From the NCBI GenBank assembly GCA_049973735.1, contig JBMFJL010000008.1, positions 1-16,510 on the forward strand: a DNA stretch of 16,510 nt, given 5' to 3'. Of the stretch, positions 2 through 13,855 are shown one piece after another. Made by a program: the position numbers and the translations under genes. The notes under the pieces were generated by a model that ran no database searches, was not told where the DNA came from, and saw nothing but the letters and a program-made list of their open reading frames with translations. The stretch comes from Nanopusillaceae archaeon (GTDB lineage: Archaea; Nanobdellota; Nanobdellia; Nanobdellales; Nanobdellaceae). The first letter of the stretch is position 1. Each line of letters opens with the position of its first letter.

Positions 2-163
2 TTAGAAGGTGGAAAGGTAGTTAGATTAAAGAAACAATGTCCTAGATGTGGAAGATTTATGGGAGAACATAAAGATAGATATCATTGTGGATATTGTGGA
101 TATACCGAATTCAAAATTAAGCAAGAGAAAAAATTAATAAAGGAAATTGGAATCCAAATATAA
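2..163 (+). CDS. rps27ae: Ribosomal protein eS31 (S27ae), C-terminal part; 5' end lies outside the window
   Basis: Frame 2 translates to [53 protein letters not shown]. The CPRCG...[14 protein letters not shown] zinc-ribbon is the signature of archaeal S27ae. The TAA stop is at 161-163. It is absent from the ORF track because it has no start codon in the window. Confidence 0.8.
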
Positions 164-479
164 AATAAAATATTTTGGATTTTTTAGATCTATTATAGGT
201 TTAATGTTTCAAATCCCAGATAAAAATACAATATATATATTGGATCTAGGGAAGGATAGAGAAGATGCAGATGTCCATACATTTTTTTGCTTAAAGCCAT
301 TGGATATATACTTGTATGACTCGAATTTAAATTTAGTTGGTTATAAGAAAAATATGAAGCCATTTAGAGTATATAGACCAAGAAAAAAATTTAGATATGT
401 AATAGAAGGCATAGATTTAAATGAGGATAAACTAAAATATGCTTTAGAAAAATTAAAATCATTCGAATTTGCTAGATAA
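147..479 (+). CDS. DUF192-like small protein (hypothetical)
   Basis: 110-aa ORF with a TTG start that overlaps the S27ae 3' end by 17 nt. RSIIGLMF, then [15 protein letters not shown], then FRYVIEG resemble the DUF192/COG1430 pattern (GLM..., M-x-x-PLDIiF-D, yVLE). This assignment is from memory of the family pattern only. The first in-frame ATG would cut the GLM motif, so the TTG start is plausible. Confidence 0.5.
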
Positions 480-836
480 CATCTCAAATTCTAAGAATAA
501 TCTATCTACAGAATTTTTTATATTCTTTATATTTTCAGATAAAGATTTGGATATTTGTGCTTTAAATTGAGTTGGAATTGCAGGATTTTGGGATATTTCT
601 TCATGATAAATTTCTAGATACGATTTGAGTAATTCTAATATATTTATTAAATCTTGCAAAAGGATAAATATATAGTTTATTTCTTGTAATTGATATTGAT
701 ACAAAATATTCTGGTTAGTTAAAGTTTTTTCATACATATTAATAGATCTTATATGTATAATGCTACTGTTCACTTTGTTTATTAAATTTGAAATGGAATT
801 TAATATTTCATTTTCTTTCTCCTGATAATTCATCAT
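459..836 (-). CDS. Hypothetical small helical (coiled-coil-like) protein
   Basis: 125-aa ORF with no TM segment and no Cys. It has heptad-like L/I/N/E-rich composition. Its end converges on and overlaps the DUF192-like ORF by 21 nt. I recognise no family. Confidence 0.45.
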   Translation of the reverse strand: MMNYQEKENEILNSISNLINKVNSSIIHIRSINMYEKTLTNQNILYQYQLQEINYIFILLQDLINILELLKSYLEIYHEEISQNPAIPTQFKAQISKSLSENIKNIKNSVDRLFLEFEMLSSKFE

Positions 837-1566: not shown

Positions 1567-2388
1567 ATGTTGGCACATGCTCAAGGAAATTATGAAAAAG
1601 CAAAATGGGTGATTATTGGAATACCATCAGAGCTAGGTAGTTTATCACATGTAAAATATTATTCTGAAGGCCCAGAAGCTATTAGAGATGCCTCTTATAG
1701 AATCTTTAGTACAATTTTTGGAAAAGTAAATTTAGATGAAATATATGACTTCGGAGATCTAGATTTAGAGGATATAAAGAATATTCAAGATCTTTACAAA
1801 AAAATATATGAAGAAGTAAAGAATATATATAATAAAAATAAAAAATTTGTATTTCTTGGTGGAGATCATTCTATAACATATCCAATAATAAAAATTTTAA
1901 AGGAAAATTGGGATGATCTTTATTTATTATATTTTGATGCACATCCAGATATACATCCAGATCCATATGTAAATTATCAAAGTTTTATATACTATTTAAT
2001 AAAGGAGGATTACTTAGATCCCGAAAAAATAATAATGGTCGGTATATCAAATTTATCATTTGATGAAAAAGAAATAATAAAAGATTGGGGTATAAAGTAT
2101 TATACACCATTTGATGTTTGGGACAATCCAGACAAAATAGCTAAGGAGATTAAAGAAATGTTGAATAATAAAAATGTTTATATTTCTATTGATATTGATG
2201 TTTTTGAAAATGGTTGCGGACATTGGTTGGAAGGATTTGGAATTAGACCATATCATTATTTTAAAATTATAAAAAATATAGATGTTAATTTAATAGGTTT
2301 TGATATTGTAGAATTGTTTTCAAGCGAAATATGCGATAATCTAGCTGCAAAAATATTATTAGAAACTATTGCTATTTTTAGTAAGTAA
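1567..2388 (+). CDS. speB: Arginase/agmatinase/formiminoglutamase-family ureohydrolase (probably agmatinase)
   Basis: 273 aa with the family's Mn-binding motifs: GGDHSITYP, FDAHPDIHPD, SIDIDV, and GFDIVEL near the C-terminus. Agmatinase versus arginase cannot be decided by eye. The segment after SIDIDV (FENGCGHWLEGFG) departs from the usual DPxxAPGTGTPxPGG. Confidence 0.7.
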   Translation: MLAHAQGNYEKAKWVIIGIPSELGSLSHVKYYSEGPEAIRDASYRIFSTIFGKVNLDEIYDFGDLDLEDIKNIQDLYKKIYEEVKNIYNKNKKFVFLGGDHSITYPIIKILKENWDDLYLLYFDAHPDIHPDPYVNYQSFIYYLIKEDYLDPEKIIMVGISNLSFDEKEIIKDWGIKYYTPFDVWDNPDKIAKEIKEMLNNKNVYISIDIDVFENGCGHWLEGFGIRPYHYFKIIKNIDVNLIGFDIVELFSSEICDNLAAKILLETIAIFSK

Positions 2389-2392
2389 AGAT

Positions 2393-3043
2393 CTAGACTA
2401 TTTTTATACTTTTGTTTCCAAGATTTAGCAAATAAACTCTTACAGACTGGAAGAAAGTTATATTGTTTATTGCTCTACATGGTATTTTATTGCATATAAT
2501 TTTCCCATCTAAGTTTTCAGTGCAGATTAAATCATCTTGAACGTAGGTTTGAGATAAAAATATGAAAGATTGGTTGTTTGAGGATAAATTATTAATACAA
2601 AAATCATAAACAAATTTATAGAAATCTGAATAAAAGTTCCTGCATATTTCCAGTTTCATATAATGAAATTCTCCATTTATAGATATTGGATAACTTATAT
2701 TATCGCAATTACCGAAATAATTTATTATGCCAAAACTATAATTTTCTATATATACTCTGAATGGATATGGAAATGTTGTACAGTTAGGCAATTCATTAAA
2801 AAAAGTTTTATTATAATATGATAATTTATCATAAGTTGTATAATAAATTGAATAACCTTGGTAGCCAATACAATTTGGAGAAAATAATTGATATATAATA
2901 TCTTGGGAATATGAAAAATAATTCTGTCTTTCAAAATTGTATAAATTTAAAGAAGAAAAGAATGCAGTAATTAGAATAATACCCACTATAAAGAATACTA
3001 TTAATAGAGTGGTAAATGCTACAGAAAACTGATATCTCCTCAT
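2393..3043 (-). CDS. Orphan Cys-rich N-terminally anchored surface protein (last gene of the cluster)
   Basis: 216 aa. The N-terminus MRRYQFSVAFTTLLIVFFIVGIILITAFF is a short basic head plus one hydrophobic helix. The ectodomain has 8 Cys and several N-x-S/T sequons (NKT, NCT, NYS, NIS, NLS, NQS, NIT, NKS). Its start is 1 nt from the upstream gene's stop. Confidence 0.7.
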   Translation of the reverse strand: MRRYQFSVAFTTLLIVFFIVGIILITAFFSSLNLYNFERQNYFSYSQDIIYQLFSPNCIGYQGYSIYYTTYDKLSYYNKTFFNELPNCTTFPYPFRVYIENYSFGIINYFGNCDNISYPISINGEFHYMKLEICRNFYSDFYKFVYDFCINNLSSNNQSFIFLSQTYVQDDLICTENLDGKIICNKIPCRAINNITFFQSVRVYLLNLGNKSIKIV

Positions 3044-3044
3044 T

Positions 3045-4277
3045 TTATGTACTACAGTATGTATTTACTTCCATAGTATCTGGACATTGAATATCTTTTG
3101 CACAATCAGGATTACATTCACATCTAACATTTATCCAACATATTATACAATCCCTTCTATAAGATACATAATATAAAAATTCTATAGTTTTTGTGTCAGT
3201 ATCTTCTGAAACTACTGATGAAGATCCACATCCATCTAGAGGATCACAATCTTCCCATTGATTATTTAATTTGCAAGTTAGTGGTAATGGTGTTATTGGT
3301 TTACCAGTAGTCTTATTAACCTTATATTCACATTTATATTCACATATTTTGTATGCATATTGAGTTACATTTTGGTAATAGACTATAGAGCTAAATGTTA
3401 TCCTTTGTGGCAATGTCACACCATTATAATATACATTGTAATCTGTATGCTCACAAGACAATGTTATGATACAGGCAATTCCTATTGGATACCAACAATA
3501 TTTGTCACAATTCAAAGGAACTTTACATTGATATGGAATTATACTCTCATTACATTTTACAGCTGGATTTCCTACAAAATTCTCGAAGGAATCTTTACAA
3601 GTATATGTCGGAGAACCTAATAAAGTATTTACACAATCTACATAGGAGCAATCTGAAAATTCACCACTTAATGAAAAATCATAGGCATTTCTATACAAAT
3701 AAAATGCAGGATTATTTGTTACATTAAATGAATATAGATATGGATATATGGCGCCTGTATTTGGACTGGTTACATTTATATATATTCCATTGACTCCGAT
3801 TGGGAACCAATAATCATATTCTCCAGAGTTTACATTTTGACAACTACCAATTATCCCAGCAATATACTGATCTGAAAAATTTAAATTTACATTAAAAGGA
3901 TAATAATATTTTTCTTGATATAAATTTAGCATTCCTATGTTCGATTCCTCCATAATACCTTCCATTAGCAGTTTATTATAAAAGCTCATGGCATCGGGAC
4001 ATTCTGGAGGCATATGACATCCATAAGGTACTGAAGCCCAATAACTTTGATTCCAAGAATTAGTACCAGCATTATAAGATTGTGTATACGCTTGTTGTTG
4101 TATTAGAGTTGACATATACCCTAAAAAATAATTTACTAATGTATTAACAGATGTATATCTAATAAATACTTCATTTTGTTTATAACTTAATGTTAAAGCA
4201 AAAAATACTAGCACAACTACTGAAATGATTAAAGATAAAAACAATATCGCATATAATATTTCATTTTGAAGTCTCAT
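3045..4277 (-). CDS. Orphan highly Cys-rich N-terminally anchored surface protein
   Basis: 410 aa. The N-terminus MRLQNEILYAILFLSLIISVVVLVFFAL is a signal-anchor. It has 24 Cys (about 6 percent), clustered at the C-terminus (RDCIICWINVRCECNPDCAKDIQCPD). It has many N-x-S/T sequons. Its ATG overlaps the upstream stop by 4 nt (4274-4277). Confidence 0.75.
   Translation of the reverse strand: MRLQNEILYAILFLSLIISVVVLVFFALTLSYKQNEVFIRYTSVNTLVNYFLGYMSTLIQQQAYTQSYNAGTNSWNQSYWASVPYGCHMPPECPDAMSFYNKLLMEGIMEESNIGMLNLYQEKYYYPFNVNLNFSDQYIAGIIGSCQNVNSGEYDYWFPIGVNGIYINVTSPNTGAIYPYLYSFNVTNNPAFYLYRNAYDFSLSGEFSDCSYVDCVNTLLGSPTYTCKDSFENFVGNPAVKCNESIIPYQCKVPLNCDKYCWYPIGIACIITLSCEHTDYNVYYNGVTLPQRITFSSIVYYQNVTQYAYKICEYKCEYKVNKTTGKPITPLPLTCKLNNQWEDCDPLDGCGSSSVVSEDTDTKTIEFLYYVSYRRDCIICWINVRCECNPDCAKDIQCPDTMEVNTYCST
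3322..3345 (-). repeat. Perfect 12-nt tandem duplication (2 copies) inside the 410-aa gene
   Basis: The plus strand has ttatattcacat twice in a row (3322-3333 and 3334-3345). This encodes the in-frame duplication CEYK-CEYK. Confidence 0.85.
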
Positions 4278-5443
4278 TTTTTAATAATAGCATGAAGATA
4301 TATAAATATTATTATTGCAACTGTTAATACAAATCCATGTATTGTTCCCCACACTATGCTTGCATTTGGAAAGTTTATTAAATTAATTAATATACCAAGT
4401 TTTACTGGGAATTCATATCTAGAAAATTCCAGTAGTTCACCAGTAAATAACTGTAATAAAAACAATATTGCTAATGTTATACCAAAACCTTTTTTCATTA
4501 CTTTATTAGATAATCTATAAAGTCCATAGTGTATGCCTGCTATTAAAAATATAAGAGAAGGTATATACCTTGTATGCAATAAAAAAGCATAAAAATCCCT
4601 AAATGTTAGGAAATAAAGACCTACAAAAATTTCTAGAAATGATAAAGTCAATAGAAGGTGATCGGTAAAATTATGAAATCTAGTTGAAATATTCTTTTTA
4701 TATATTTTGTAAAGTACAAATAATTCTACGACTGAAAATATTAAACTGAAGGTATACATATATTTATGATAATTAGATGTGTTATATTGAAATAATCTAT
4801 AAGTAGACAAAAGTATTTGTACAAATATAATGAAAAATATTGCTAGATATAGATACTTTTTATATTTATCAATTTTATTTAGTGCAGAAGCTATATTTAT
4901 TTTTGGATCTTTGTTTATATAATTCTGTAAAAACAATAAGACAGATGCGATTAATAATAATATTGATATTACTAAAAATACCAAATATTTATTACGTAGA
5001 AAGCTAATGGGGAATATATAATAAATATAAAAAGGGACGACTATATCAAAATTCTTGTAGAGAAAATGAATGAAAAGTATCAAAAAGAGTAAGAAAATAT
5101 TTAGAATATAAATCATGATTGATTTTTTTGAAAAAGAAAATTTATTTTCGACAATATAGTATCCTAAAATAAATGAGAGCATATAGAATAACACATAGTC
5201 AACGATTAACGAGTAAATAACTTCTATAATCATATAAGTTCTAAAAATAAAAATTGGTATTATAAGATAAGATAGCTTGTACAATTTTGACGCCTTTGTA
5301 TATTTTAAAAATAAGAGAAGTAAAAATGAATAAATTAGTCCAAATATGGTTATGAAAATTGAAAAGTCGCTAAGAATTAAAAACAAAAAATATTCTAAAA
5401 TATATATTAAATAGAAAATTATATTTTCGTTTAATTTTACCAT
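4274..5443 (-). CDS. Polytopic integral membrane protein, Cys-free, unknown family
   Basis: 389 aa, almost entirely hydrophobic, with roughly ten or more predicted helices by eye. It has zero Cys. His residues sit in the last helices (IAGIHYGLY and WGTIHGFVLTVAIIIFIYLHAI). It overlaps both neighbours (7 nt and 4 nt). Confidence 0.75.
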   Translation of the reverse strand: MVKLNENIIFYLIYILEYFLFLILSDFSIFITIFGLIYSFLLLLFLKYTKASKLYKLSYLIIPIFIFRTYMIIEVIYSLIVDYVLFYMLSFILGYYIVENKFSFSKKSIMIYILNIFLLFLILFIHFLYKNFDIVVPFYIYYIFPISFLRNKYLVFLVISILLLIASVLLFLQNYINKDPKINIASALNKIDKYKKYLYLAIFFIIFVQILLSTYRLFQYNTSNYHKYMYTFSLIFSVVELFVLYKIYKKNISTRFHNFTDHLLLTLSFLEIFVGLYFLTFRDFYAFLLHTRYIPSLIFLIAGIHYGLYRLSNKVMKKGFGITLAILFLLQLFTGELLEFSRYEFPVKLGILINLINFPNASIVWGTIHGFVLTVAIIIFIYLHAIIKK

Positions 5444-6987
5444 ACCTTTAAAACACCTACTAGGTATCCGCCTAAGTAAGGAACATTAACTGGTAAATAG
5501 AAATAAAATACATATACTGATACCCCTTCTGGTACAGGATATCCTAATTGCACATAATTGCCCTTACCTTGGAACATAAAGGCGTTCAATTCGTAAACTT
5601 TATCATCTTCTGTTAAACAATATAATCTAGCCATTGCAACACCATTACTATGTATATGTGGATCCCAATAAGCGGCAGATACATAAATATATGGTGTGTT
5701 TGGATCTCTATCATTTATAACCCATTTTGTTATATTGAATCTATATAATCCCTGAGCAGATAACCCATCTACATTAATTCTATATACTAAAGGACAATCT
5801 TTCCCTACAGTCACTCCTCCAACATTTGTAATATCATCATATACTCCTGTAGGACAGTCTATTAGATTACCATTTTTATAATATTTACAATAAGGATCTG
5901 CTGCCAGGAATACATATTCCGGTTGTCCATTTTTATTTAGGTAGGATATATATAATCTAACTACTTCATGCCATGGATAATCCATAAAAACTTGTTTGCA
6001 GAAATCTGGTATAATAACCTGTCCTCTATAGAAAGATCCGACCACAACTTCAGTATTTGATATCAAATTTAACATCTTTGCTAAATAAGTTATATCTGTT
6101 GCTGTTTTATATGTAGGAGGATTTTCATAATAATGAAAAGTAAAAATTTTTCCACAATGATCTCCTTCGCCATCGAAAAACTTTGGTAAATTTTTAGTAG
6201 GTTCTGTACTTCCTCCACATGCTCCTAAAGGACCAAAATCTTGAAATAGTTTCCATTCTCCATTTGGACAAAAAACTGATGCATCAGTGAATTTTTGATT
6301 TGGCAATACTTTTGACAAAGGTAAACACACACCTCTCTTTATGGCATCTTCTATATTATTAGCTGGAGAATATAGACCTTGAAGACCCCAATTTGATGAA
6401 GAAGTCCATTCATGAAAAGGTGCAGTTGCGTTTACCCAGCCAGCGCCTTTTATTGTTACTGTACCGAAGTTAGGAACATACACATTTTCATTGTAAGAAT
6501 CGGTAAAAAAGTACGTATAGTTCCATTCATACCATTCTATATTATTATTATCCTTTGGTGGATTGAATGCACAAACATCATAACTTCCTTCATTTCCAGT
6601 AACTATGAACATTTGAACAATCCATCCGGTTACAGAAGGTAAATAGTAAACAGTTAGGTTCCATCTATTTCCATAAATGGCATCAAAATATTCCTTAATA
6701 TCTTTTGAAATATTTGTGCAGATTCTAGGATTTATACAATAAGTATCATTTCCTGATGTAGACCAATAGGATAATAAGAAAGAATAAGATAAATTTACTT
6801 TTGAATCAAATATATAAGATAATAGGTCTACGCTATTTTGAATAGTCAAAGAATATTGATTAATGGACTCTTGGCCAGTTGTAGTTTGTGATGAATAATT
6901 ATAGGAGAGCAAATAAGCTAATAGACCGGATAATAGAATTATTCCAGCAATAATAGATAAAGTTAAGACATTTATATCAGATTTCAT
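5437..6987 (-). CDS. Orphan large N-terminally anchored surface protein
   Basis: 516 aa. The N-terminus MKSDINVLTLSIIAGIILLSGLLAYLLSY is a signal-anchor. It has 12 Cys, is rich in Y/W/N/G, and has several N-x-S/T sequons. Its start lies 1 nt after the upstream stop. I recognise no domain. Confidence 0.75.
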   Translation of the reverse strand: MKSDINVLTLSIIAGIILLSGLLAYLLSYNYSSQTTTGQESINQYSLTIQNSVDLLSYIFDSKVNLSYSFLLSYWSTSGNDTYCINPRICTNISKDIKEYFDAIYGNRWNLTVYYLPSVTGWIVQMFIVTGNEGSYDVCAFNPPKDNNNIEWYEWNYTYFFTDSYNENVYVPNFGTVTIKGAGWVNATAPFHEWTSSSNWGLQGLYSPANNIEDAIKRGVCLPLSKVLPNQKFTDASVFCPNGEWKLFQDFGPLGACGGSTEPTKNLPKFFDGEGDHCGKIFTFHYYENPPTYKTATDITYLAKMLNLISNTEVVVGSFYRGQVIIPDFCKQVFMDYPWHEVVRLYISYLNKNGQPEYVFLAADPYCKYYKNGNLIDCPTGVYDDITNVGGVTVGKDCPLVYRINVDGLSAQGLYRFNITKWVINDRDPNTPYIYVSAAYWDPHIHSNGVAMARLYCLTEDDKVYELNAFMFQGKGNYVQLGYPVPEGVSVYVFYFYLPVNVPYLGGYLVGVLKVW

Positions 6988-6988
6988 T

Positions 6989-7885
6989 TTATCTTAGATA
7001 GTAAAGTAGTAGTAATAAGGCCACTATAATAATTACTATTGCTATAGCTATTGGCCATTTATATGGGAATTCACTACTTTTAGTTTCAGTTATATTCTGT
7101 TTTACTAAATTTAAATTAATATTTGTTGTTGCCGTTTCTGTATTATTTGTGTTATTAATGCAAATAAAAGTTCCGGTACATGTAACTTTTATAGTATTTG
7201 GTGGAGGACAGAAATATTCAAAAGAAGCATATAATACCAATAAAGAAAAATTGTTTGGACATCTATACCAGTTTCCATTAAAAGTTGAATTCGGTGGACA
7301 ATAACCACACATAACTTCTTTTCTATAAGCTTCAACCAACTTTTGATAATCTGTCTTATTGTAATTTGGTGGTATGTTTGGTATATAAGGTGGTTCAAAA
7401 CATGGATAAGGGGTAGAGCTACATTCAGGTACTAACCAAGGTTTATCGGGGCATTCTAATATACTTGTACAATTTGTTTTATTTGTATAAAATGATAAAT
7501 CAATATCTTTTAGGATTCCTTCAGGAAGTAAAGATTGTGGAATGATCAAAGTACCATTTGGATATTGACAATAAGAATTATTTACAATTATTCCATCAAT
7601 AATTTCTTCCTCTCTAACTAAGGATAAATTATAATGGGCGCAAAAAGAATATTCTGGAGGTACTTCATTCATATAGTATTGAAATATATCAAATGGAACT
7701 CCATTTACTATACAATATTCTCCTGTTGAATTCGAATAGTATTTACCACCACCATATTCGCAATATATTACAAAAGCATCTTTTAGAGAATATGATTTGT
7801 TATATATTAATAAAGCAAAAAATGTTAAAAATACGATTATAAGGAATGTCTTTTTACCTTTGGTGAATATTCTTCTATAGCTCAT
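6989..7885 (-). CDS. Type-I membrane surface protein with two DUF333-like Cys motifs and a C-terminal TM anchor
   Basis: 298 aa. The N-terminal signal is MSYRRIFTKGKKTFLIIVFLTFFALLIYNKSYS. The C-terminal anchor is KWPIAIAIVIIIVALLLLLYYLR. It has 14 Cys and about 13 N-x-S/T sequons. YCEYGGGKYYSNSTGEYCIVNGVPFDIFQYY resembles the DUF333/COG3042 pattern (vYC-x2-GG...G-x2-C-x-lPNG...eW). A degenerate second copy is FCAHYN...SYCQYPNGTLI. Confidence 0.7.
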   Translation of the reverse strand: MSYRRIFTKGKKTFLIIVFLTFFALLIYNKSYSLKDAFVIYCEYGGGKYYSNSTGEYCIVNGVPFDIFQYYMNEVPPEYSFCAHYNLSLVREEEIIDGIIVNNSYCQYPNGTLIIPQSLLPEGILKDIDLSFYTNKTNCTSILECPDKPWLVPECSSTPYPCFEPPYIPNIPPNYNKTDYQKLVEAYRKEVMCGYCPPNSTFNGNWYRCPNNFSLLVLYASFEYFCPPPNTIKVTCTGTFICINNTNNTETATTNINLNLVKQNITETKSSEFPYKWPIAIAIVIIIVALLLLLYYLR

Positions 7886-7964: not shown

Positions 7965-9434
7965 TTATGTAGTAACATTCTGTATAGCAAATACTTCAAG
8001 TTTTGGAAAGGTTATTCCGTAAGGAGTCATTCCAAATGGTATATACATGAATCCATCTTGTGACCAATAGACACCTTCACATCCATCTCCATATTTACAA
8101 TTTCTAAACTTGCTTCCGCATGTGTTCGGATCTCTAGATACCAAGCGGTAATATCCTCCTCTTCTGAATTCTAAGCAGCCTGTAAGTTTTCCCCATGAGT
8201 TTTCAAGTATCCAGCATTTGGGAGTTCCATATACTGTTTTACATAGTGTAGAATTTAGATCGTATCCTACTATCACCATTGCATGACCTGTGCTATTGTC
8301 TTCTGTTGTCATATTCTCAGGCAGATTTGGGTTTCCGGAAGGATAAGATTTTCCTCCAAGCATTCCACCAACTACTAGAGGACCATAACAAGCAATAGCT
8401 TTCACTAAATTATCGTTAGAAGACCATTTTAAGTTAATAACATTTTTTGCAAAATACTTTGGAGTGCCCCAGTTAGGATCAGGAATTACTGGAGCGCCGC
8501 ATACATTTCCGGGATAGTTATCAGAAGTTGGAGAACAAGTATATAAATAGTCTCTATATTTTTTATAATCTATATCTGCATGAACACCAAAATTAGTTGC
8601 ATACCTTAATGCTAAAGATGGAAGTCCACCCTTGCATCCCAGATTGAATTGACAATAAGCAGGAGCACCCGGAGCCATCCAATTGCAGTGAACTGCTAAT
8701 TCGTATGCTGCAATCCAAGGATTTTGTCCAGGTTTATCATTTCTAATCATATATACCGCATCTAAACCATTTGCAGTTGCATATGCCCAGCAATCTCCAC
8801 AAGATCCTTGTGATGTAATTGGTGGTAAGTAATTTTTACCATTTATATCCCCCCAAAACAATCTTTCTGGTGGATTGTTTGGATCTAAAAGGCAATCTGC
8901 GGAAAAGTTAATATTATTATTACCACCTCCACCACTACCTCCACCTCCACCTCCACCACCTCCGCCCCAATTGTTACTTATGTTGAAGCTATTTGGAAAT
9001 GAAGGTAAATTGGTATTGGATAGGTTCAAAGCACTTATATTTGTTGTAGTTATATATACAGTTCCGTTTGTTTTAACAAGATAAATAAAATTAACATATA
9101 GTAATTTATCTACAATTGTTCCATTATTAAATAATACTACAGTATTGTTATCAAAATCAATAGTATAATTTTTATTGTTGTATTCTACTATTAGCGAATT
9201 ATTTGATGAGTATAATATAACATTGCTGGGTAGTTCAATTTCAATATAAAAGTTTCCTGGAAAAGTATTTATGGTATTTTGTAAATTTTGAAGATTATAC
9301 ATAAAATTGTTGAATAACTGTTCTTGTTGGTATTTTTGAACATTAGTTGTATATTGATAATATATCAAAAATGCAGAACCTACAACTATTAATATTATTA
9401 CAGTATTTAGAAGGTTAATTTGTAACCTCCTCAT
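7965..9434 (-). CDS. Membrane-anchored papain-family (C1) cysteine protease fused to a pilin-like N-terminal module via a poly-Gly linker
   Basis: 489 aa. Residues 1-26 are MRRLQINLLNTVIILIVVGSAFLIYY (anchor). Residues 27-156 form an N/Y/I-rich beta-looking module. Residues 157-171 are G10-S-G4. Residues 172-489 carry the C1 signatures: Q209 (SQGSCGDCWAY), catalytic C215 (codon 8790-8792), H384 in GHAMVIVGYD (codon 8283-8285), and N412 in ENSWG (codon 8199-8201). It has 15 Cys in total. Confidence 0.85.
   Translation of the reverse strand: MRRLQINLLNTVIILIVVGSAFLIYYQYTTNVQKYQQEQLFNNFMYNLQNLQNTINTFPGNFYIEIELPSNVILYSSNNSLIVEYNNKNYTIDFDNNTVVLFNNGTIVDKLLYVNFIYLVKTNGTVYITTTNISALNLSNTNLPSFPNSFNISNNWGGGGGGGGGGSGGGGNNNINFSADCLLDPNNPPERLFWGDINGKNYLPPITSQGSCGDCWAYATANGLDAVYMIRNDKPGQNPWIAAYELAVHCNWMAPGAPAYCQFNLGCKGGLPSLALRYATNFGVHADIDYKKYRDYLYTCSPTSDNYPGNVCGAPVIPDPNWGTPKYFAKNVINLKWSSNDNLVKAIACYGPLVVGGMLGGKSYPSGNPNLPENMTTEDNSTGHAMVIVGYDLNSTLCKTVYGTPKCWILENSWGKLTGCLEFRRGGYYRLVSRDPNTCGSKFRNCKYGDGCEGVYWSQDGFMYIPFGMTPYGITFPKLEVFAIQNVTT
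8922..8966 (-). repeat. Low-complexity (GGN)n tract encoding G10-S-G4
   Basis: The plus strand is a 45-nt CCA/CCT/CCG run, the most G+C-rich stretch in the window. The antisense poly-Pro ORF at 8875-9084 is its shadow. Confidence 0.9.
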
Positions 9435-9458
9435 TATAAAAAATTATGATTGAAGGTT

Positions 9459-9466
9459 TTTATAAA
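9459..9466 (-). promoter_or_regulatory. TATA box for the protease gene
   Basis: The palindromic octamer TTTATAAA is centred about 28 nt upstream of the ATG at 9434. It lies immediately after the stop of the upstream gene, in a 34-nt gap. Confidence 0.5.
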
Positions 9467-9468
9467 TT

Positions 9469-9912
9469 TTAGGAGAGAGGTCCTAGGGAGATCTTAACCG
9501 TAGTTGGATTAGTTTTATTTATTATTAATTTGAGTATTTCATAGTCCTTTCCATAGTAAGCTGTATAATAAATTCCAGATGTATAATATCTAATCTTTCC
9601 ATCAGGAGTATCTATTACTATATTGCAATCTGATGTATGATTTAAAAATTGATCATATACATAACAAGAAATTATTTTATTATCTGATATTATATAGTTT
9701 AAATATTTGTTTGCTTGAAAATCTAAATATACTACTGTTCCTTGATTGGAAAAGCAAACCTGATCTATTTTATTAAAAAGTATTTGACATTGATTTATCT
9801 GAGTGTTAATCAATTGGAATTGCTCATTTGAATGGCTAAATTTAAAATATAAAAATAAAGCTAATCCGAAGGCAATTATAGATGCTATAACCCAAAACCA
9901 ATTTTCTGTCAT
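9469..9912 (-). CDS. Small N-terminally anchored protein (minor-pilin-like candidate)
   Basis: 147 aa. MTENWFWVIASIIAFGLALFLYFKF is a single N-terminal helix. It has 4 Cys at positions 42, 53, 83 and 96. The C-terminal part is beta-rich and Y-rich. Its ATG overlaps the upstream stop by 4 nt. Confidence 0.65.
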   Translation of the reverse strand: MTENWFWVIASIIAFGLALFLYFKFSHSNEQFQLINTQINQCQILFNKIDQVCFSNQGTVVYLDFQANKYLNYIISDNKIISCYVYDQFLNHTSDCNIVIDTPDGKIRYYTSGIYYTAYYGKDYEILKLIINKTNPTTVKISLGPLS

Positions 9913-10328
9913 TGTACTTTTAGATATACGTAATCTCCATCTTGGCTATAATACACTAAAACATAAGAATTTGGCGTTATAGTGTAATCGCATCTTTGAA
10001 TTACAACATTTTTATCTATACTTAATACTTTGCTTATAAGATCGCTACAAGTAAATGATTTTGTGCCTGTATATTGGATTAAATAACATAAACCTATTTG
10101 TCTATTTCTATAACAAGAAATTACATCTAAAGCTACTTTATCTATAGAATCAACACTAGTTTCTACAATAGTAGTTGCATATGAACTATTACTGAGCGTT
10201 CTACTAACATAATTGCTGGCACTATTCTTGATTGTGAATATTATACCTAGAATAACAACTGTTACTATTAATCCTATCAGTATTAAAAATGTTAGATTTA
10301 CTGGCATTTCTAGACTTTTCATTGCCAT
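9909..10328 (-). CDS. Small N-terminally anchored protein (minor-pilin-like candidate)
   Basis: 139 aa. The N-terminus is MAMKSLEMPVNLTFLILIGLIVTVVILGIIF. It has 4 Cys. It overlaps the upstream gene by 10 nt. Confidence 0.65.
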   Translation of the reverse strand: MAMKSLEMPVNLTFLILIGLIVTVVILGIIFTIKNSASNYVSRTLSNSSYATTIVETSVDSIDKVALDVISCYRNRQIGLCYLIQYTGTKSFTCSDLISKVLSIDKNVVIQRCDYTITPNSYVLVYYSQDGDYVYLKVQ

Positions 10329-10789
10329 AGTATAATTTTACTATTGTTGTATATTATAAATATGCTCTGACGTGGAGCTAAATAAGTACGATATTTTAGG
10401 TTTAATTCCAATTTTTTAGTATCGAAAGTTGTGTATTTATTTAAATTTGTTATTATATCATTTACATCTACATTTACATTTTCAGCTATATATAAATCAT
10501 AGCAAACATCTAGTAATTTATCAGTGTTTACATTCTTATTATAACAATTTAGTATATATCCTGCAATATCAAATGCAATTTCAGATTTGGTTTTATTTTC
10601 AAAGTATATTTTTATTGCTGAAGGATAGTATTCAGAACATTCTGGAGAAAAACCTCCTTGCGATATCAAGGTTTTACAATAATAGCCAGAAGACTTGCTA
10701 AAAAACATATTATACATTAAATAAGCCAATACACTAAATGAAATTATTCCAATTATAATATAGAATACTTGTTCTATTGCAATATTCAT
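10319..10789 (-). CDS. Small N-terminally anchored protein (minor-pilin-like candidate)
   Basis: 156 aa. The N-terminus is MNIAIEQVFYIIIGIISFSVLAYLMYNMFF. It has 4 Cys at positions 38, 51, 82 and 96, nearly the same spacing as the 147-aa protein. Its ATG overlaps the upstream stop by 4 nt. Confidence 0.65.
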   Translation of the reverse strand: MNIAIEQVFYIIIGIISFSVLAYLMYNMFFSKSSGYYCKTLISQGGFSPECSEYYPSAIKIYFENKTKSEIAFDIAGYILNCYNKNVNTDKLLDVCYDLYIAENVNVDVNDIITNLNKYTTFDTKKLELNLKYRTYLAPRQSIFIIYNNSKIILWQ

Positions 10790-11073
10790 ATGTATGATAT
10801 ATTTCCTTGATAAATATAAATTATTCTATAGCCAGAAGGTATTGTTATACCATTTATAGTACAGTTATACAATAAATAGACCTTTATATCTATTATTTTA
10901 TTAAAGCTCTCTTTGTAATAGTTCATAAGCTGATTGCAATCTATTGCTGGAATGTTTTCTTCGTTACTAACATAATTTTTAACTTTTCCCAAATAAAGAA
11001 AGGAGAATATACCCCCAATTATTATGAGTATTAATACAATTATCATCCAGTAAATATTAAATTGATTCTTCAT
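10786..11073 (-). CDS. Small N-terminally anchored protein
   Basis: 95 aa. The N-terminus is MKNQFNIYWMIIVLILIIIGGIFSFLYL. It has 2 Cys. Its ATG overlaps the stop of the 656-aa gene by 4 nt. Confidence 0.6.
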   Translation of the reverse strand: MKNQFNIYWMIIVLILIIIGGIFSFLYLGKVKNYVSNEENIPAIDCNQLMNYYKESFNKIIDIKVYLLYNCTINGITIPSGYRIIYIYQGNISYI

Positions 11074-13040
11074 GGAACAAACTTTTGTGGCAAATATGGG
11101 CCAAATATTGTAAATACCATTACTATACCCATTACTGTAAATATAGTATAAAATATTGTTCCTGTAATTAAATTTTTTCCAATATAATAAGAAATCATTG
11201 TTTTGTCAAAACCATATTTTATTCCAGCAGACATAAATGAAGTCAATACTACATATTCTACAAAAAATATTCCTATAATTGTTTGAAAATAAGATTGTGG
11301 AATTAAATTATACATATTAAATGTATTTAATATAAAGTCATGTAGTCCAAGGCCTCCTGGTAATCCTAAGGCCATACCTATGAGTTGAAAAAAATGTGCT
11401 ATAGCAAATAACATAGCTACTATAGCATTGTTAAATACTGTTACTATAGATGAGATAAGAGGAACCAAGTTTTTAGCAGTCATATCTAACATGCTAACAA
11501 TTTCATTTAATAGTTTTCTAACTTGATATCTTATATTAACGACATTTTCTAAGTTATATGATATATTATAAGTAATTTGTGATAAAACTTGTGGACCTTT
11601 TGGTAGGGAATATACTATTAATTGCATTGTTTCTCTAATCAATTTTGATGGATAAAAATTTAGTGATCCGAATCTCTGATGAAAAATAGAGTCATATAGA
11701 CTAAATCCCTTTCTTAAGTTATATAATGTTATCTTGAGAAAATTTTCCATAACACCACTAGATTTGATTATTTTATAGTTTTCATAGGTTTTATGTATAA
11801 CAACTTCCATAGGATATCCATCTTCTAATAATGAAGCAAATTCATATGTTACAATCGGAAATTCATTTTCCATTTCCTCAATTTCATTTATCCTTTTCAC
11901 TTTCTGAAAGGATATTAAATAAAAATAAGAACCTATTGCAAGACCTAAACCCAATGGTATAGTTAAAACTAATAAAGAATTGTGCAGTGCTCTGTCTTGA
12001 AATATTATATTTAGATATCCATTTTGGTCTCCAGGTGGTAAATATACTATTTTTATTGCTAGACTAATCAAGTAATATACCCCTATTGCTATTAAGGATA
12101 AAAACATTAGGGATATAACATATGCAGGAACTTCTTTATTTCCAATTCTGAATCTACCTTCTCTGGGTAAGTCTTTTGATAAAGACAAATCTGGAACTGC
12201 AAAAGCAAAAGGATTTTTGGATAATAAGTTTTGTATTACTAAAAAAGTCAATATTGGTAATATTATTATATAGCCAAATGCAATAAAATAAATACTAACT
12301 GTATTTAATATAAATACCGATAGTAATGGAAGCATAATTAAGCTAACCAATGGAAGCATTACTAAGAATGATACAATCATTGTGGCCGGTTCCTTCAAAG
12401 CTGCTACATAATTTTCTGATTTTTCTAATGATTTTTTCAATACCCAGTTTAATATTCTATCTACTAATTTATTTATTTCTTCTAAAGATGTTTTGTATTT
12501 TATATTTATTAAATGAGTCATTGCATAAACAAAGTCAGGATTCAAATAAAACCATCTATACTGATAATATTGTATTGCACTATCAAGTTCTTTGAATCTA
12601 CCAATTTCTAGATCATATATTAATTTTTTGAAATCCGTAGCAATTACTCCATTGAGATAATATGCAACATACTGTATAGCTTTCTCTAGATTGGGATTTC
12701 TCTTCAGATATAAAGATAAGTATAATACGATCCAAACAGATTCTGATGTAGCCTGAATTTTTACTATTTGTGTATAAAATATCGGATAGTACATTAAATA
12801 GAAATCAAGTATTAACAGTGAAATGAAGAGGGAAAATGCAAATTGAAATGATAAGAAACCGAGTATTACGAATAACAGTATTGATATTATAAATAAAGAT
12901 AAGGTGGAAGAAAAGATGTTCTCTGGGGTAGTATTTAATCTATTTAACCATAAATGGAATGTATATAATTTTTCAATTTTTTTTGGAGGTTTTACTTTAA
13001 ATATTATAAATCTGTTATAAAAAAATTCAAAAATATACAT
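11070..13040 (-). CDS. Polytopic membrane protein with FlaJ/TadC/PilC-like (T2SS-F-type platform) architecture
   Basis: 656 aa with zero Cys. By eye the layout is two repeats of a soluble helical segment of about 120-150 aa (residues about 90-215 and about 380-530), each followed by clusters of TM helices. This is the arrangement seen in archaeal FlaJ/PilC platform proteins. It lies directly after a pilin-like gene. Family membership was not verified by alignment. Confidence 0.45.
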   Translation of the reverse strand: MYIFEFFYNRFIIFKVKPPKKIEKLYTFHLWLNRLNTTPENIFSSTLSLFIISILLFVILGFLSFQFAFSLFISLLILDFYLMYYPIFYTQIVKIQATSESVWIVLYLSLYLKRNPNLEKAIQYVAYYLNGVIATDFKKLIYDLEIGRFKELDSAIQYYQYRWFYLNPDFVYAMTHLINIKYKTSLEEINKLVDRILNWVLKKSLEKSENYVAALKEPATMIVSFLVMLPLVSLIMLPLLSVFILNTVSIYFIAFGYIIILPILTFLVIQNLLSKNPFAFAVPDLSLSKDLPREGRFRIGNKEVPAYVISLMFLSLIAIGVYYLISLAIKIVYLPPGDQNGYLNIIFQDRALHNSLLVLTIPLGLGLAIGSYFYLISFQKVKRINEIEEMENEFPIVTYEFASLLEDGYPMEVVIHKTYENYKIIKSSGVMENFLKITLYNLRKGFSLYDSIFHQRFGSLNFYPSKLIRETMQLIVYSLPKGPQVLSQITYNISYNLENVVNIRYQVRKLLNEIVSMLDMTAKNLVPLISSIVTVFNNAIVAMLFAIAHFFQLIGMALGLPGGLGLHDFILNTFNMYNLIPQSYFQTIIGIFFVEYVVLTSFMSAGIKYGFDKTMISYYIGKNLITGTIFYTIFTVMGIVMVFTIFGPYLPQKFVP

Positions 13041-13047
13041 TCGAAAT

Positions 13048-13815
13048 CTATGGTGCCGGTGGTTGTGCTATTATACTGTATGGCATCTGGATTAATACTT
13101 TACATAAAGGTTCTTCACCATTTACTTTAAGTGCTGAACAAGATCCCTTTACATATAAAATACCATCCTTTACAGTTAATTCTAAGTTACCTCCTTTACA
13201 ATCATGATTATTGTAATATTGTAATATGTTATACAATGCTCCGAATATTTGGTTAGTGATCCATGTTGGTATATTTCCGTTGCATGCAGAAGTTGGTCCT
13301 GGATTTAATGCTTTTGATGGAGTATCGAATGATATCTTAATATCTCCAGGTGCCAGCGATACTTGTGTATATGTTCCAAATATTAATGCTGTAGCGTTTG
13401 CAGGATCATAGTATAGATCTGATATATAATGTTTACACAAGAAGTACATACATGCTAATGGAGTTATTTGAGTTCCTTGATATATACATGCTTGTTGTCC
13501 GCTTCCACTACTAGATCCCCATTGCTGTAATACTACACTACATGGAACAGCATTAGCACATACATAATATCCTGGAGATACTTCCTCCCATCCATTTCCA
13601 ACAGCAACATATTTTTGACAGAAATCTATAACACTATTACATGCATTTGTACAATCTGATACTGCTTGTGATATCTGTGTATTAGATAATTGTCCTATCT
13701 TTGATGCTTGCTGTGTAAATAGCTTTATTACTACTACTGCAATTATTAACATTATTAGTATTACAAAAACCAATTGTACTGCCATATCTATTGCCCTCTT
13801 TTTCATAATAATCAT
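13048..13815 (-). CDS. Pilin-like (class III signal peptide-like) Cys-rich secreted protein; first gene of the cluster
   Basis: 255 aa, starting MIIMKKRAIDMAVQLVFVILIMLIIAVVVIKLF. The basic head plus A|I plus a hydrophobic stretch of about 20 residues is a near match to archaeal prepilin-peptidase substrates ([KR][GA]|hydrophobic). It has 12 Cys. TATA spacing favours the fourth-codon ATG (13806) as the true leaderless start, giving MKKRA|IDM. Confidence 0.55.
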   Translation of the reverse strand: MIIMKKRAIDMAVQLVFVILIMLIIAVVVIKLFTQQASKIGQLSNTQISQAVSDCTNACNSVIDFCQKYVAVGNGWEEVSPGYYVCANAVPCSVVLQQWGSSSGSGQQACIYQGTQITPLACMYFLCKHYISDLYYDPANATALIFGTYTQVSLAPGDIKISFDTPSKALNPGPTSACNGNIPTWITNQIFGALYNILQYYNNHDCKGGNLELTVKDGILYVKGSCSALKVNGEEPLCKVLIQMPYSIIAQPPAP

Positions 13816-13829
13816 AAAATATCTGGGTA

Positions 13830-13837
13830 TTTATAAA
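13830..13837 (-). promoter_or_regulatory. TATA box for the cluster's first transcription unit
   Basis: This is the same palindromic octamer TTTATAAA as at 9459-9466. It is centred about 27.5 nt upstream of the ATG at 13806, but only 18.5 nt from the ATG at 13815. Confidence 0.5.
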
Positions 13838-13855
13838 TTTTTTATATAACTAAAT

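Follow-up and report, generated by a model that had tools for sequence, protein, structure and literature searches.

Results

Architecture of a papain-family gene from a Nanopusillaceae genome

We analysed a stretch of 16,510 nucleotides (hereafter the window; contig JBMFJL010000008.1 of assembly GCA_049973735.1, read on the forward strand) from a Nanopusillaceae metagenome-assembled genome (MAG), with a GC content of about 25% across its length. A 489-codon open reading frame (ORF), running from ATG to stop at 7965..9434 on the minus strand, encodes a member of the papain (C1) peptidase family in which a pilin-like N-terminal module (N-module) and a linker precede the catalytic domain. NCBI holds the identical protein (P0001) under the name 'MAG: C1 family peptidase [Nanopusillaceae archaeon]', and the orthologue Nps_00495 / Nst1_643 is listed as 'Peptidase C1A subfamily', with one transmembrane domain and arCOG03611, in a table of Wurch et al. 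Since the N-terminus is positively charged and carries a single hydrophobic segment (residues 6-24), and since the 489-aa protein contains 13 N-x-S/T sequons and 15 Cys, an extracellular location is predicted. An initial annotation, made by a model from the letters of the window, had described the gene, naming no strand, as a papain-type protease tethered to a pilin-like module. Its parts are as follows.

7965..9434, minus strand: whole gene, 489 aa, with pilin-like N-module, linker and C1 peptidase domain
9354..9434, minus strand: residues 1-27, with basic leader MRRL, near-invariant Gln5 and about 20 hydrophobic residues; type-IV-pilin-like N-terminus or membrane anchor (from the conservation of Gln5 and of the motif)
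8967..9434, minus strand: residues 1-156, autonomous N-module, with a long helix (2-57) and a nine-strand beta head (62-129) (from AlphaFold2, profile search and strain YN1)
8922..8966, minus strand: residues 157-171, G10-S-G4 run, core of a low-complexity tether (about residues 146-180)
7965..8921, minus strand: residues 172-489 and stop, papain-family (C1) catalytic domain (from PF00112 and the cathepsin L alignment)
8808..8810, minus strand: Gln209 codon, oxyanion hole, equivalent to papain Gln19 (from alignment)
8790..8792, minus strand: Cys215 codon, catalytic nucleophile, equivalent to papain Cys25 (from alignment)
8283..8285, minus strand: His384 codon, catalytic base (from alignment)
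8199..8201, minus strand: Asn412 codon in ENSWG, orienting the His, equivalent to papain Asn175 (from alignment)
9458..9466, minus strand: TATA-box-like TTTATAAAA, -32 to -24 from the ATG, within a 34-nt gap

The C1 domain and its catalytic residues

The Pfam profile PF00112 (Peptidase_C1) matches residues 200-441 across profile positions 10-212 of 220 (E=1.8e-21; 77.7 bits, cut-off 20.7), and 115 papain-family PDB chains match the protein at E<=0.01, the best being cathepsin L (E=1.2e-11). The motifs GSCGDCWAY (residues 210-218, with C212 and C215, and Q209 just before), GHAMVIVGYD (383-392) and ENSWG (411-415, with N412 and W414) are readily located. In the cathepsin L alignment QGSCGDCWA is paired with QGQCGSCWA, GHAMVIVGY with DHGVLVVGY and WILENSWG with WLVKNSWG, so that the oxyanion Q209, six residues before the nucleophile C215, and C215 itself both fall on their cathepsin L equivalents. 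The protein is a papain-family member, the agreement being well above anything chance would give. All the catalytic residues cited in the initial annotation are in place, and the superposition of Cys, His and Asn on the papain-type residues agrees with the cathepsin L alignment.

Among 48 non-identical orthologues, H384 is present in all, C215 and N412 in 47 each, and Q209 and W414 in 46 each. The complete Q/C/H/N/W set is found in the window protein and in 44 of the 48 orthologues, which argues for purifying selection on catalysis. The domain contains 14 further Cys, ten of them invariant and the other four present in 42-47 of the 48 orthologues, together with a Cys-rich insertion after NSWG. 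Because both the catalytic residues and the 14 other Cys are conserved, the C1 domain is probably an active, disulfide-stabilised, extracellular enzyme.

Individual orthologues deviate from the catalytic set. In the orthologue of Ca. Nanopusillus sp. RSNP5 (locus L012, positions 10001-11557; JAPYVP010000001.1) the motif reads CGDYWAF: Tyr stands at the position of the nucleophile Cys, and the 518-aa gene is otherwise intact. Possible causes are an error in sequencing, a recent loss of activity or a pseudoenzyme. The oxyanion Gln is missing from P0021 and P0022, and in P0014 the catalytic Asn is replaced by Asp. At the C-terminus, a near-invariant QNVT (residues 486-489; window 7968-7979, minus strand; N486 and T488 each in 47 of 48 orthologues) places a sequon at the very end of the protein, where it could serve as a conserved glycan site or a recognition tag.

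The window protein shares with the MEROPS C1A members of PF00112 (papain, cathepsin L and the prokaryotic 'short' C1A peptidases) the catalytic order Q...CGxCW...H...NSWG and an end-to-end alignment with mature cathepsin L; it differs from them in the absence of an I29 propeptide, in its extra Cys pairs, in the Cys-rich insertion and in the fused membrane-helix/beta module. The nearest eukaryotic relatives do carry the I29 propeptide (PF08246), and the Pfam search found no match to it in the window protein, as the initial annotation had stated. The accompanying claim that C1 peptidases are uncommon in archaea is contradicted by a published survey: C1 peptidases occur in all major archaeal lineages including DPANN, usually in single copy and often propeptide-free, and short prokaryotic C1A peptidases without a propeptide are common (Kordis & Turk 2023, PMC10380794).

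The GC content over the C1 domain (window 8000-9000) is 38-39%, against about 25% elsewhere, which prompted us to consider a recent horizontal transfer. This was rejected, with GC3 at 0.23 compared with 0.15-0.19 in the neighbouring genes; the rise is due to the Gly/Cys/Pro/Ala/Trp-rich composition of the domain and the GGN codons of the linker.

Orthologues share the modules and differ in the spacer

Word-indexed and profile searches recovered full-length relatives in about 45 clusters at 36-49% identity, all from Nanopusillus/Nanobsidianus-type nanoarchaea, including the cultured Ca. Nanopusillus acidilobi 7A and the single-cell genome Nst1. Outside this family E drops from 1e-90 to 7e-12, and the next relatives among the matches found are plant RD19D and cathepsin W/L at about 23-27% identity, a ranking that has to be read with the ability of a word-indexed search to miss closer prokaryotic C1A relatives in mind. 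About 47 orthologues share the architecture of the window protein. In 1,081 pairwise comparisons of orthologues, mean identity is 79% for the N-module and 68% for the C1 domain, and in 95% of the pairs the N-module is the more conserved of the two; the catalytic part diverges more rapidly than its carrier and than most partners in the surrounding gene cluster. The first 145 residues or so are likewise better conserved than the protease in an alignment of 22 orthologues.

The G10-S-G4 linker (residues 157-171) is private to this MAG. At the equivalent place the orthologues have spacers of 20-95 aa, most of them Asn/Gln/Thr/Gly-rich and often built of NQT repeats (N-glycosylation sequons), two of them Gly/Ser-rich, and that of strain YN1 Pro/Ser-rich. 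Orthologues thus keep the anchor and the N-module, and have these variable spacers in place of the Gly linker. What is conserved is a flexible tether and not the linker sequence, and the spacer is probably glycosylated in most orthologues.

A domain swap in strain YN1

A profile of the N-module, searched against 1.84 billion (1.84e9) representative proteins, gave six genuine matches: three are fusions with the familiar architecture, two (P0024 and P0025, 141 and 142 aa) stand alone, and one is a 66-aa fragment. In Nanobdellota strain YN1 (complete genome AP031373.1) the N-module is a separate 141-aa gene within the cluster, 48% identical over 135 aa (E=9e-32) and sited two genes downstream of the protease gene. 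A second stand-alone copy occurs at locus L017. The C1 peptidase of YN1 has 579 aa, and its residues 2-143 are an orthologue of g147, a small protein encoded in the window at 9469-9912 (53.5% identical, E=1e-50); there follow an extra Ser-rich beta domain, the Pro/Ser linker and the C1 domain.

Since the N-module is a separate gene in YN1 and the C1 domain is there fused to another protein, the N-module is an autonomous carrier and not a propeptide. The propeptide hypothesis was rejected on this ground, in line with the initial annotation, which had not taken the module for a cleaved inhibitory propeptide. Moreover, since either of two small cluster proteins can carry the C1 domain, the N-module and the upstream small proteins are functionally equivalent carriers, and the comparison of genomes indicates that the carrier module is autonomous and interchangeable. 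Such a swap is expected if the carriers belong to one assembly, in which attachment to any member would bring the protease to one place.

Beside the YN1 N-module gene (locus L013, 9153-10957) lies a 172-aa partial duplicate of the g298 type, which is 46.5% identical over about 129 aa and has a C-terminal transmembrane (TM) segment of its own. Part of the downstream gene was apparently duplicated in the same local rearrangement that split the N-module from the protease.

Layout and conservation of the N-terminal module

Type IV pilins and archaellins are generally built from a hydrophobic N-terminal helix that runs into an amphipathic helix bearing a beta head. The window protein begins with MRRLQ followed by INLLNTVIILIVVGSAFLIYY, so that some 20 hydrophobic residues come directly after a short basic leader, and all orthologues have this pattern. 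Gln5 is kept in 47 of the 48, and in the 22-orthologue alignment M1, Q5, N7, I13, I14, F22 and I24-Y28 are invariant, amounting to 11 of the first 28 residues. AlphaFold2 (AF2), run on a 20-sequence alignment, predicts a continuous helix at residues 2-57 and then nine short beta strands at 62-129, matching the hydrophobic helix and beta domain of the initial annotation; the best model reached a pLDDT of 80.5 and the other four 67-41, and the models are read as secondary structure alone.

Residues 1-30 of the C1 protein are 79% identical across orthologues, and the N-terminal 30 residues of the pilin-like cluster proteins are 75-92% conserved, level with the remainder of each protein, whereas the signal peptide of g298 is 55% conserved against 78% for the mature part. 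Because the N-terminal helices are conserved like the rest of their proteins and unlike the g298 signal peptide, this pattern suggests that they are retained as structural elements.

The N-terminal pattern MKRYQLNLLS of the C1 protein has counterparts in its neighbours. A Gln occupies the same leader position in five of them, namely g516 (MKNQINTLAF), g410 (MRNQVEVIY), g216 (MKEQLSIVF or MKGQFSIVF), g95 (MKLQQSIYW) and g139 (MAIKSQELPINY), and hhalign finds N-terminal similarity between the C1 N-module and g516 (38% probability) and between g516 and g410 (50%). The N-module had been said to resemble the small proteins encoded upstream. This is upheld by the carrier swap in YN1 and, for the first 30 residues or so, by comparison with g516, g410 and g95; it fails for the globular part, in which hhalign shows no similarity, and a paralogous relation between the N-module and the upstream small genes was dropped as unsupported by sequence. 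EppA-processed Methanococcus pilins typically have Gln at +1 (PMC3875500), a feature that Gln5, after its very short basic leader, recalls; the C1 protein differs from them in lacking Gly or Ala at -1, Glu at +5 and DUF361/PF04021. A conserved Gln at +1 is also a trait of Flp-type pilins. The 'pilin' label rests on architecture and context, not on family membership.

The twelve-gene cluster

The protease gene lies within 12 co-oriented genes between RpoH-RimK-DUF371 and arginase-UDG. The window protein had no exact match in the contig index, and its wider context was read from the loci of homologues. The identical 12-gene order is found in the metagenome/GTDB-genome loci L001-L012 (eleven distinct places), which include N. 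acidilobi 7A and Nanobsidianus Nst1; the divergent locus L015 keeps the order to the end of its contig, and YN1 is rearranged. The small genes at 9469-10789 lie upstream of the protease gene in its own (minus) orientation, and the downstream half of the cluster occupies 2393..7885 on the minus strand. The protease gene's companions are, in the order of transcription:

13048..13815, minus strand: g253, Cys-rich protein of 255 aa with a class III leader, first cluster gene
11070..13040, minus strand: g656, putative divergent TadC/FlaJ-type platform protein with nine predicted TM helices
10786..11073, minus strand: g95, small pilin-like protein with the MK.Q... motif
10319..10789, minus strand: g156, small protein with an N-terminal helix
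9909..10328, minus strand: g139, small pilin-like protein whose orthologues start MAIKS-QELPINY... (KS/Q site); the gene overlaps its neighbours
9469..9912, minus strand: g147, small protein with an N-terminal helix, the orthologue of which carries the C1 domain in YN1
6989-7885, minus strand: g298, with a signal peptide and a C-terminal TM segment
5437-6987, minus strand: g516, with a pilin-like N-terminus
4274-5443, minus strand: g389, polytopic, with four invariant His
3045-4277, minus strand: g410, Cys-rich, with a pilin-like N-terminus
2393-3043, minus strand: g216, Cys-rich, with a pilin-like N-terminus

At least six cluster proteins have pilin-like N-termini. The four small genes between g656 and the protease gene overlap by 4-10 nt, and each encodes an N-terminal hydrophobic helix and a small domain. 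The gaps at the protease gene are the largest within the cluster, with 34 nt upstream and 79 nt downstream, the gap between g253 and g656 being 7 nt. An A/T motif, AAATTTTTAAAA, stands at the equivalent distance in 12 orthologous loci, comparable to the TTTATAAA before the first cluster gene. It is possible that TTTATAAAA is an internal promoter for a leaderless mRNA, with the evidence from such motifs weakened by the 25% GC of the genome.

The most conserved cluster protein is g656, at 69% identity to the window copy. The window copy itself matches T2SSF (PF00482) weakly (E=0.044, repeat 1 alone), and six of 22 members of the g656 family match it at E down to 2.3e-5, with both halves represented; the matches of its distant homologues (25-28% identity, E 1e-44 to 1e-66) fall in either the first or the second half, at 2e-5 to 2e-3, just under the gathering score. 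A profile of the close g656 family found no match in the PDB, and the broadened family profile placed the GspF cytoplasmic domain first, with a weak E of 0.085. The AF2 model is all-alpha (pLDDT 87) and had no match in a Foldseek search of the PDB, and hhalign detected no internal repeat in a shallow alignment (Neff 1.2). Wurch et al. placed the N. acidilobi orthologue, Nps_00520, in arCOG01814, a group that bears the name 'Pilus assembly protein TadC' in Makarova et al. 2016 (PMC4858521). We therefore read g656 as a probable, divergent TadC/FlaJ-type platform protein, and the pilus-like neighbourhood seen in the initial annotation gains support from its arCOG assignment and its distant homologues.

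Orthologues of g253 have a canonical class III leader, MKRRG/IDMAVQL, which in the window copy reads KKRA/IDMAVQL, with Ala at -1. Its N-terminus, at 92% identity, is the best conserved in the cluster. The conserved TTTATAAA box in the region upstream of g253 (window 13816-13855) lies about 25-35 nt before the ATG in orthologues, and the spacing in the window differs. We regard g253 as a candidate major subunit and as a candidate for a nanoarchaeal major pilin missed in Makarova et al. 2016.

Several further observations concern the other genes of the window. The 389-aa g389 has about 10 TM segments and no Pfam match, and its invariant residues are H290 (in HTRY), H305, H369, H384 and E336/E339. 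The His are seemingly spread over the last four predicted helices, like those of a di-haem cytochrome b-type four-helix bundle, and g389 might carry electrons across the membrane, for example for the disulfide chemistry of its Cys-rich neighbours. It is the fastest-evolving cluster member, at 35-38% identity to the window copy. Several loci have a gene of 344-349 aa between g216 and the arginase gene (L001 17191-18225; L013 15591-16640), which appears to be Nps_00465, an 11-TM membrane protein in N. acidilobi; it is absent from the window (2388-2393) and from L012, where g216 abuts the arginase gene. At the left end of the window, two small conserved ORFs at 147-479 (plus strand) and 459-836 (minus strand) converge with a 21-nt overlap and have no Pfam match; orthologues of both stand at equivalent positions in L012 (19031-19351 and 18659-19045).

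Discussion

Functional extracellular proteins with a pilin-type N-terminus have an archaeal precedent in the Sulfolobus bindosome, in which sugar-binding proteins that are no classical pilins carry class III N-termini and are encoded alongside TadC-type and pilin genes. The closest known parallel is offered by the modular type IV pilins of bacteria, such as PilB and PilC of S. sanguinis or the combinations of IPR012902 with S74 or M26. In its main text, a survey of these proteins (Raynaud et al. 2021, PMC8179133) names combinations with peptidase modules predicted to be S74 or M26, none of them characterised. As described there, modular pilins share with the window protein a small pilin-type module, a linker and a grafted module from outside pilus biology, a location among minor-pilin-like genes, and cargo that appears on different carriers. 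The window protein accords with this scheme in having a separable carrier (YN1, L017) and a C1 domain, an enzyme fold that is ubiquitous outside pilus biology. It differs in being archaeal, in its C1 cargo (only S74 and M26 are named in the survey's main text), in the absence of an IPR012902-type motif, of G at -1 and of E at +5, and in having a long low-complexity spacer in place of a short loop. The cluster as a whole resembles the type IV pilus (T4P) loci of arCOG01814 (subclade 4F) and the Cys-rich T4P loci of Thermoproteales (PMC4858521), with which it shares a TadC-type gene followed by several small proteins with one TM segment, a large signal-peptide protein, a protein with a C-terminal TM segment and many conserved Cys. 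Unlike those loci it has no ATPase, no prepilin peptidase and no match to an arCOG pilin family, and no protease subunit has been described in them.

We consider that there is a somewhat better than even chance that the product is a C1A-like cysteine endopeptidase, extracellular and probably active, with the modular build of a type-IV-pilin-like protein, and that it is a minor subunit of a surface structure made by the cluster. The basic leader and some 20 hydrophobic residues would insert the N-terminus into the membrane with the N-terminus inside and the C-terminus outside, where it would probably be retained. The helix, extending to about residue 57, would bear the small beta head and dock as a carrier into the structure built by the TadC cluster, and the flexible spacer would hold the disulfide-rich, propeptide-less C1 domain off the stalk. 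The protein would then be a minor subunit of a type-IV-pilus-like filament, or of its tip or base complex, and the protease at the symbiont surface would cut extracellular proteins, most plausibly those of the host envelope.

A number of results weigh against such a pilin-like subunit. Neither sequence nor structure comparison identifies the N-module as a pilin, and the pilin-like label of the initial annotation gains no support at this level: Pfam and NCBIfam searches of ten N-termini at E<=10 gave no match to pilin families (PF07790, PF04021/DUF361, IPR012902-type), the Pfam output being generic TM-helix noise alone; NCBIfam had no match for any cluster protein; a PDB profile search with the N-module returned nothing relevant; and Foldseek found no significant match to a solved pilin in the PDB (best E=0.07). 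No prepilin-peptidase site of the form [KR]-[GAS] precedes Gln5, the -1 residue being L, Y, N or D across orthologues, and the basic-leader/Gln motif is missing from g147, the counterpart of the protein that bears the C1 domain in YN1. Within 10 kb on either side of the gene, neither a secretion ATPase nor a prepilin peptidase was found. Nanoarchaeal genomes encode several VirB11-type ATPases elsewhere (five in Nst1), their cognate pilins being unrecognised, and two nanoarchaea are without a recognisable prepilin peptidase (Makarova et al. 2016, PMC4858521). In the N. acidilobi co-culture proteome, a shotgun set of about 200 proteins ranked by spectral abundance, few of them with predicted TM segments, none of the 12 cluster orthologues (Nps_00470-Nps_00525) has a spectral or intensity value (Wurch et al. 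2016, Supplementary Data 1), and the Tyr for the catalytic Cys in the RSNP5 orthologue also speaks against an active enzyme. The flanking RimK-like and RNA polymerase proteins were detected in that proteome; the absence of the cluster proteins could reflect low abundance, heavy glycosylation, membrane association or condition-specific expression.

Much of the same evidence would favour the main rival, a plain membrane-anchored ectoprotease, with an uncleaved signal-anchor and with the beta domain and linker as a stalk, that never enters a filament. Such an enzyme could sit on the symbiont's own membrane or S-layer surface or be shed by cleavage of the linker, and could act in nutrition, by supplying peptides to a cell with few biosynthetic pathways, or in envelope remodelling. 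The missing pilin-family and pilin-fold matches, the lack of a canonical prepilin site, of a nearby ATPase and of an identified nanoarchaeal prepilin peptidase, and the leaderless YN1 carrier are all what it would predict. We nevertheless regard it as possible and on the whole doubtful, because the sequence of the N-terminal helix is preserved as in a structural element, 11 of the first 28 residues being invariant, because its leader/Gln motif recurs in five other cluster proteins, and because the gene keeps its place next to a TadC-type gene and to translationally coupled genes for small helix-plus-beta proteins. The fact that the carrier can be swapped suggests, in addition, that attachment to the assembly made by the cluster matters.

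The remaining explanations concern what the enzyme is for and whether it is one. A protease that trims or activates the Cys-rich or pilin-like products of the cluster after export, and does not act on the host, would fit the strict co-occurrence and synteny with 11 other secreted or membrane proteins, near which it would be tethered, and a promoter of its own may provide dosage control. We think this quite improbable: enzymes of the papain type are as a rule broad endopeptidases, the catalytic domain changes faster than the carrier and than most cluster partners, a pattern more typical of an outward-facing, host-interacting surface, and no conserved cleavage motif was noticed in the neighbours, for which no systematic search was made. 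That the C1 fold is a catalytically dead adhesin, merely binding a host protein, would accommodate the orthologue with Tyr at Cys215, the two without the oxyanion Gln and the one with Asp for Asn; it is very hard to reconcile with the intact Q/C/H/N/W set of the window protein and 44 of 48 orthologues, and we hold it to be very improbable. Least credible of all is a zymogen in which the N-module is an unusual inhibitory or chaperoning propeptide, cleaved to free the enzyme. Most eukaryotic C1A enzymes are made with an N-terminal prodomain, and a flexible linker would be an easy site of cleavage; yet the module has no I29 match, starts with a membrane helix and is more conserved than the enzyme, and its separation from the protease in YN1 essentially refutes the idea.

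A literature search for C1 or papain-like proteases in Nanoarchaeota, Nanopusillus or Nanobdella found no discussion of them, the sole mention being a row in a supplementary table (Wurch et al.). The C1 annotation of the gene was already known; its modular pilin-like architecture, the conservation of that architecture and the carrier swap appear to be unreported. If the subunit reading is right, this would be the first archaeal protease, and the first C1 protease, on a pilin-like carrier, as we found no report of either. The YN1 rearrangement is a natural demonstration of interchangeable carriers. Were the protein merely an anchored housekeeping or nutritional protease, the outcome would be a modest refinement of its annotation.

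Nanoarchaeota/Nanobdellota must breach or displace the host S-layer to feed. Cryo-electron tomography of YN1, YN4 and Nanobdella has revealed an attachment organelle from whose portal a thin filament, about 6.6-8 nm across, emerges, displaces and passes the host S-layer and contacts the host membrane; according to the authors of that work, the components of the filament and the mode of envelope penetration are unsettled. A conserved protease on a pilin-like subunit, present in both YN1 and N. acidilobi, is a speculative candidate for local cleavage of the S-layer, and the cluster occurs in at least two cultured systems, N. acidilobi-Acidilobus and YN1-Sulfurisphaera. In an unlikely extension of the subunit reading, the cluster would supply the missing nanoarchaeal pilins and build the filament of the attachment organelle, and a C1 protease borne at its tip would cut the host S-layer locally and so give access to the host membrane. 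If this were true, an archaeal ectosymbiont would use a papain-type enzyme as a host-entry factor, and the fast-evolving catalytic domain of the enzyme would contribute to host specificity.

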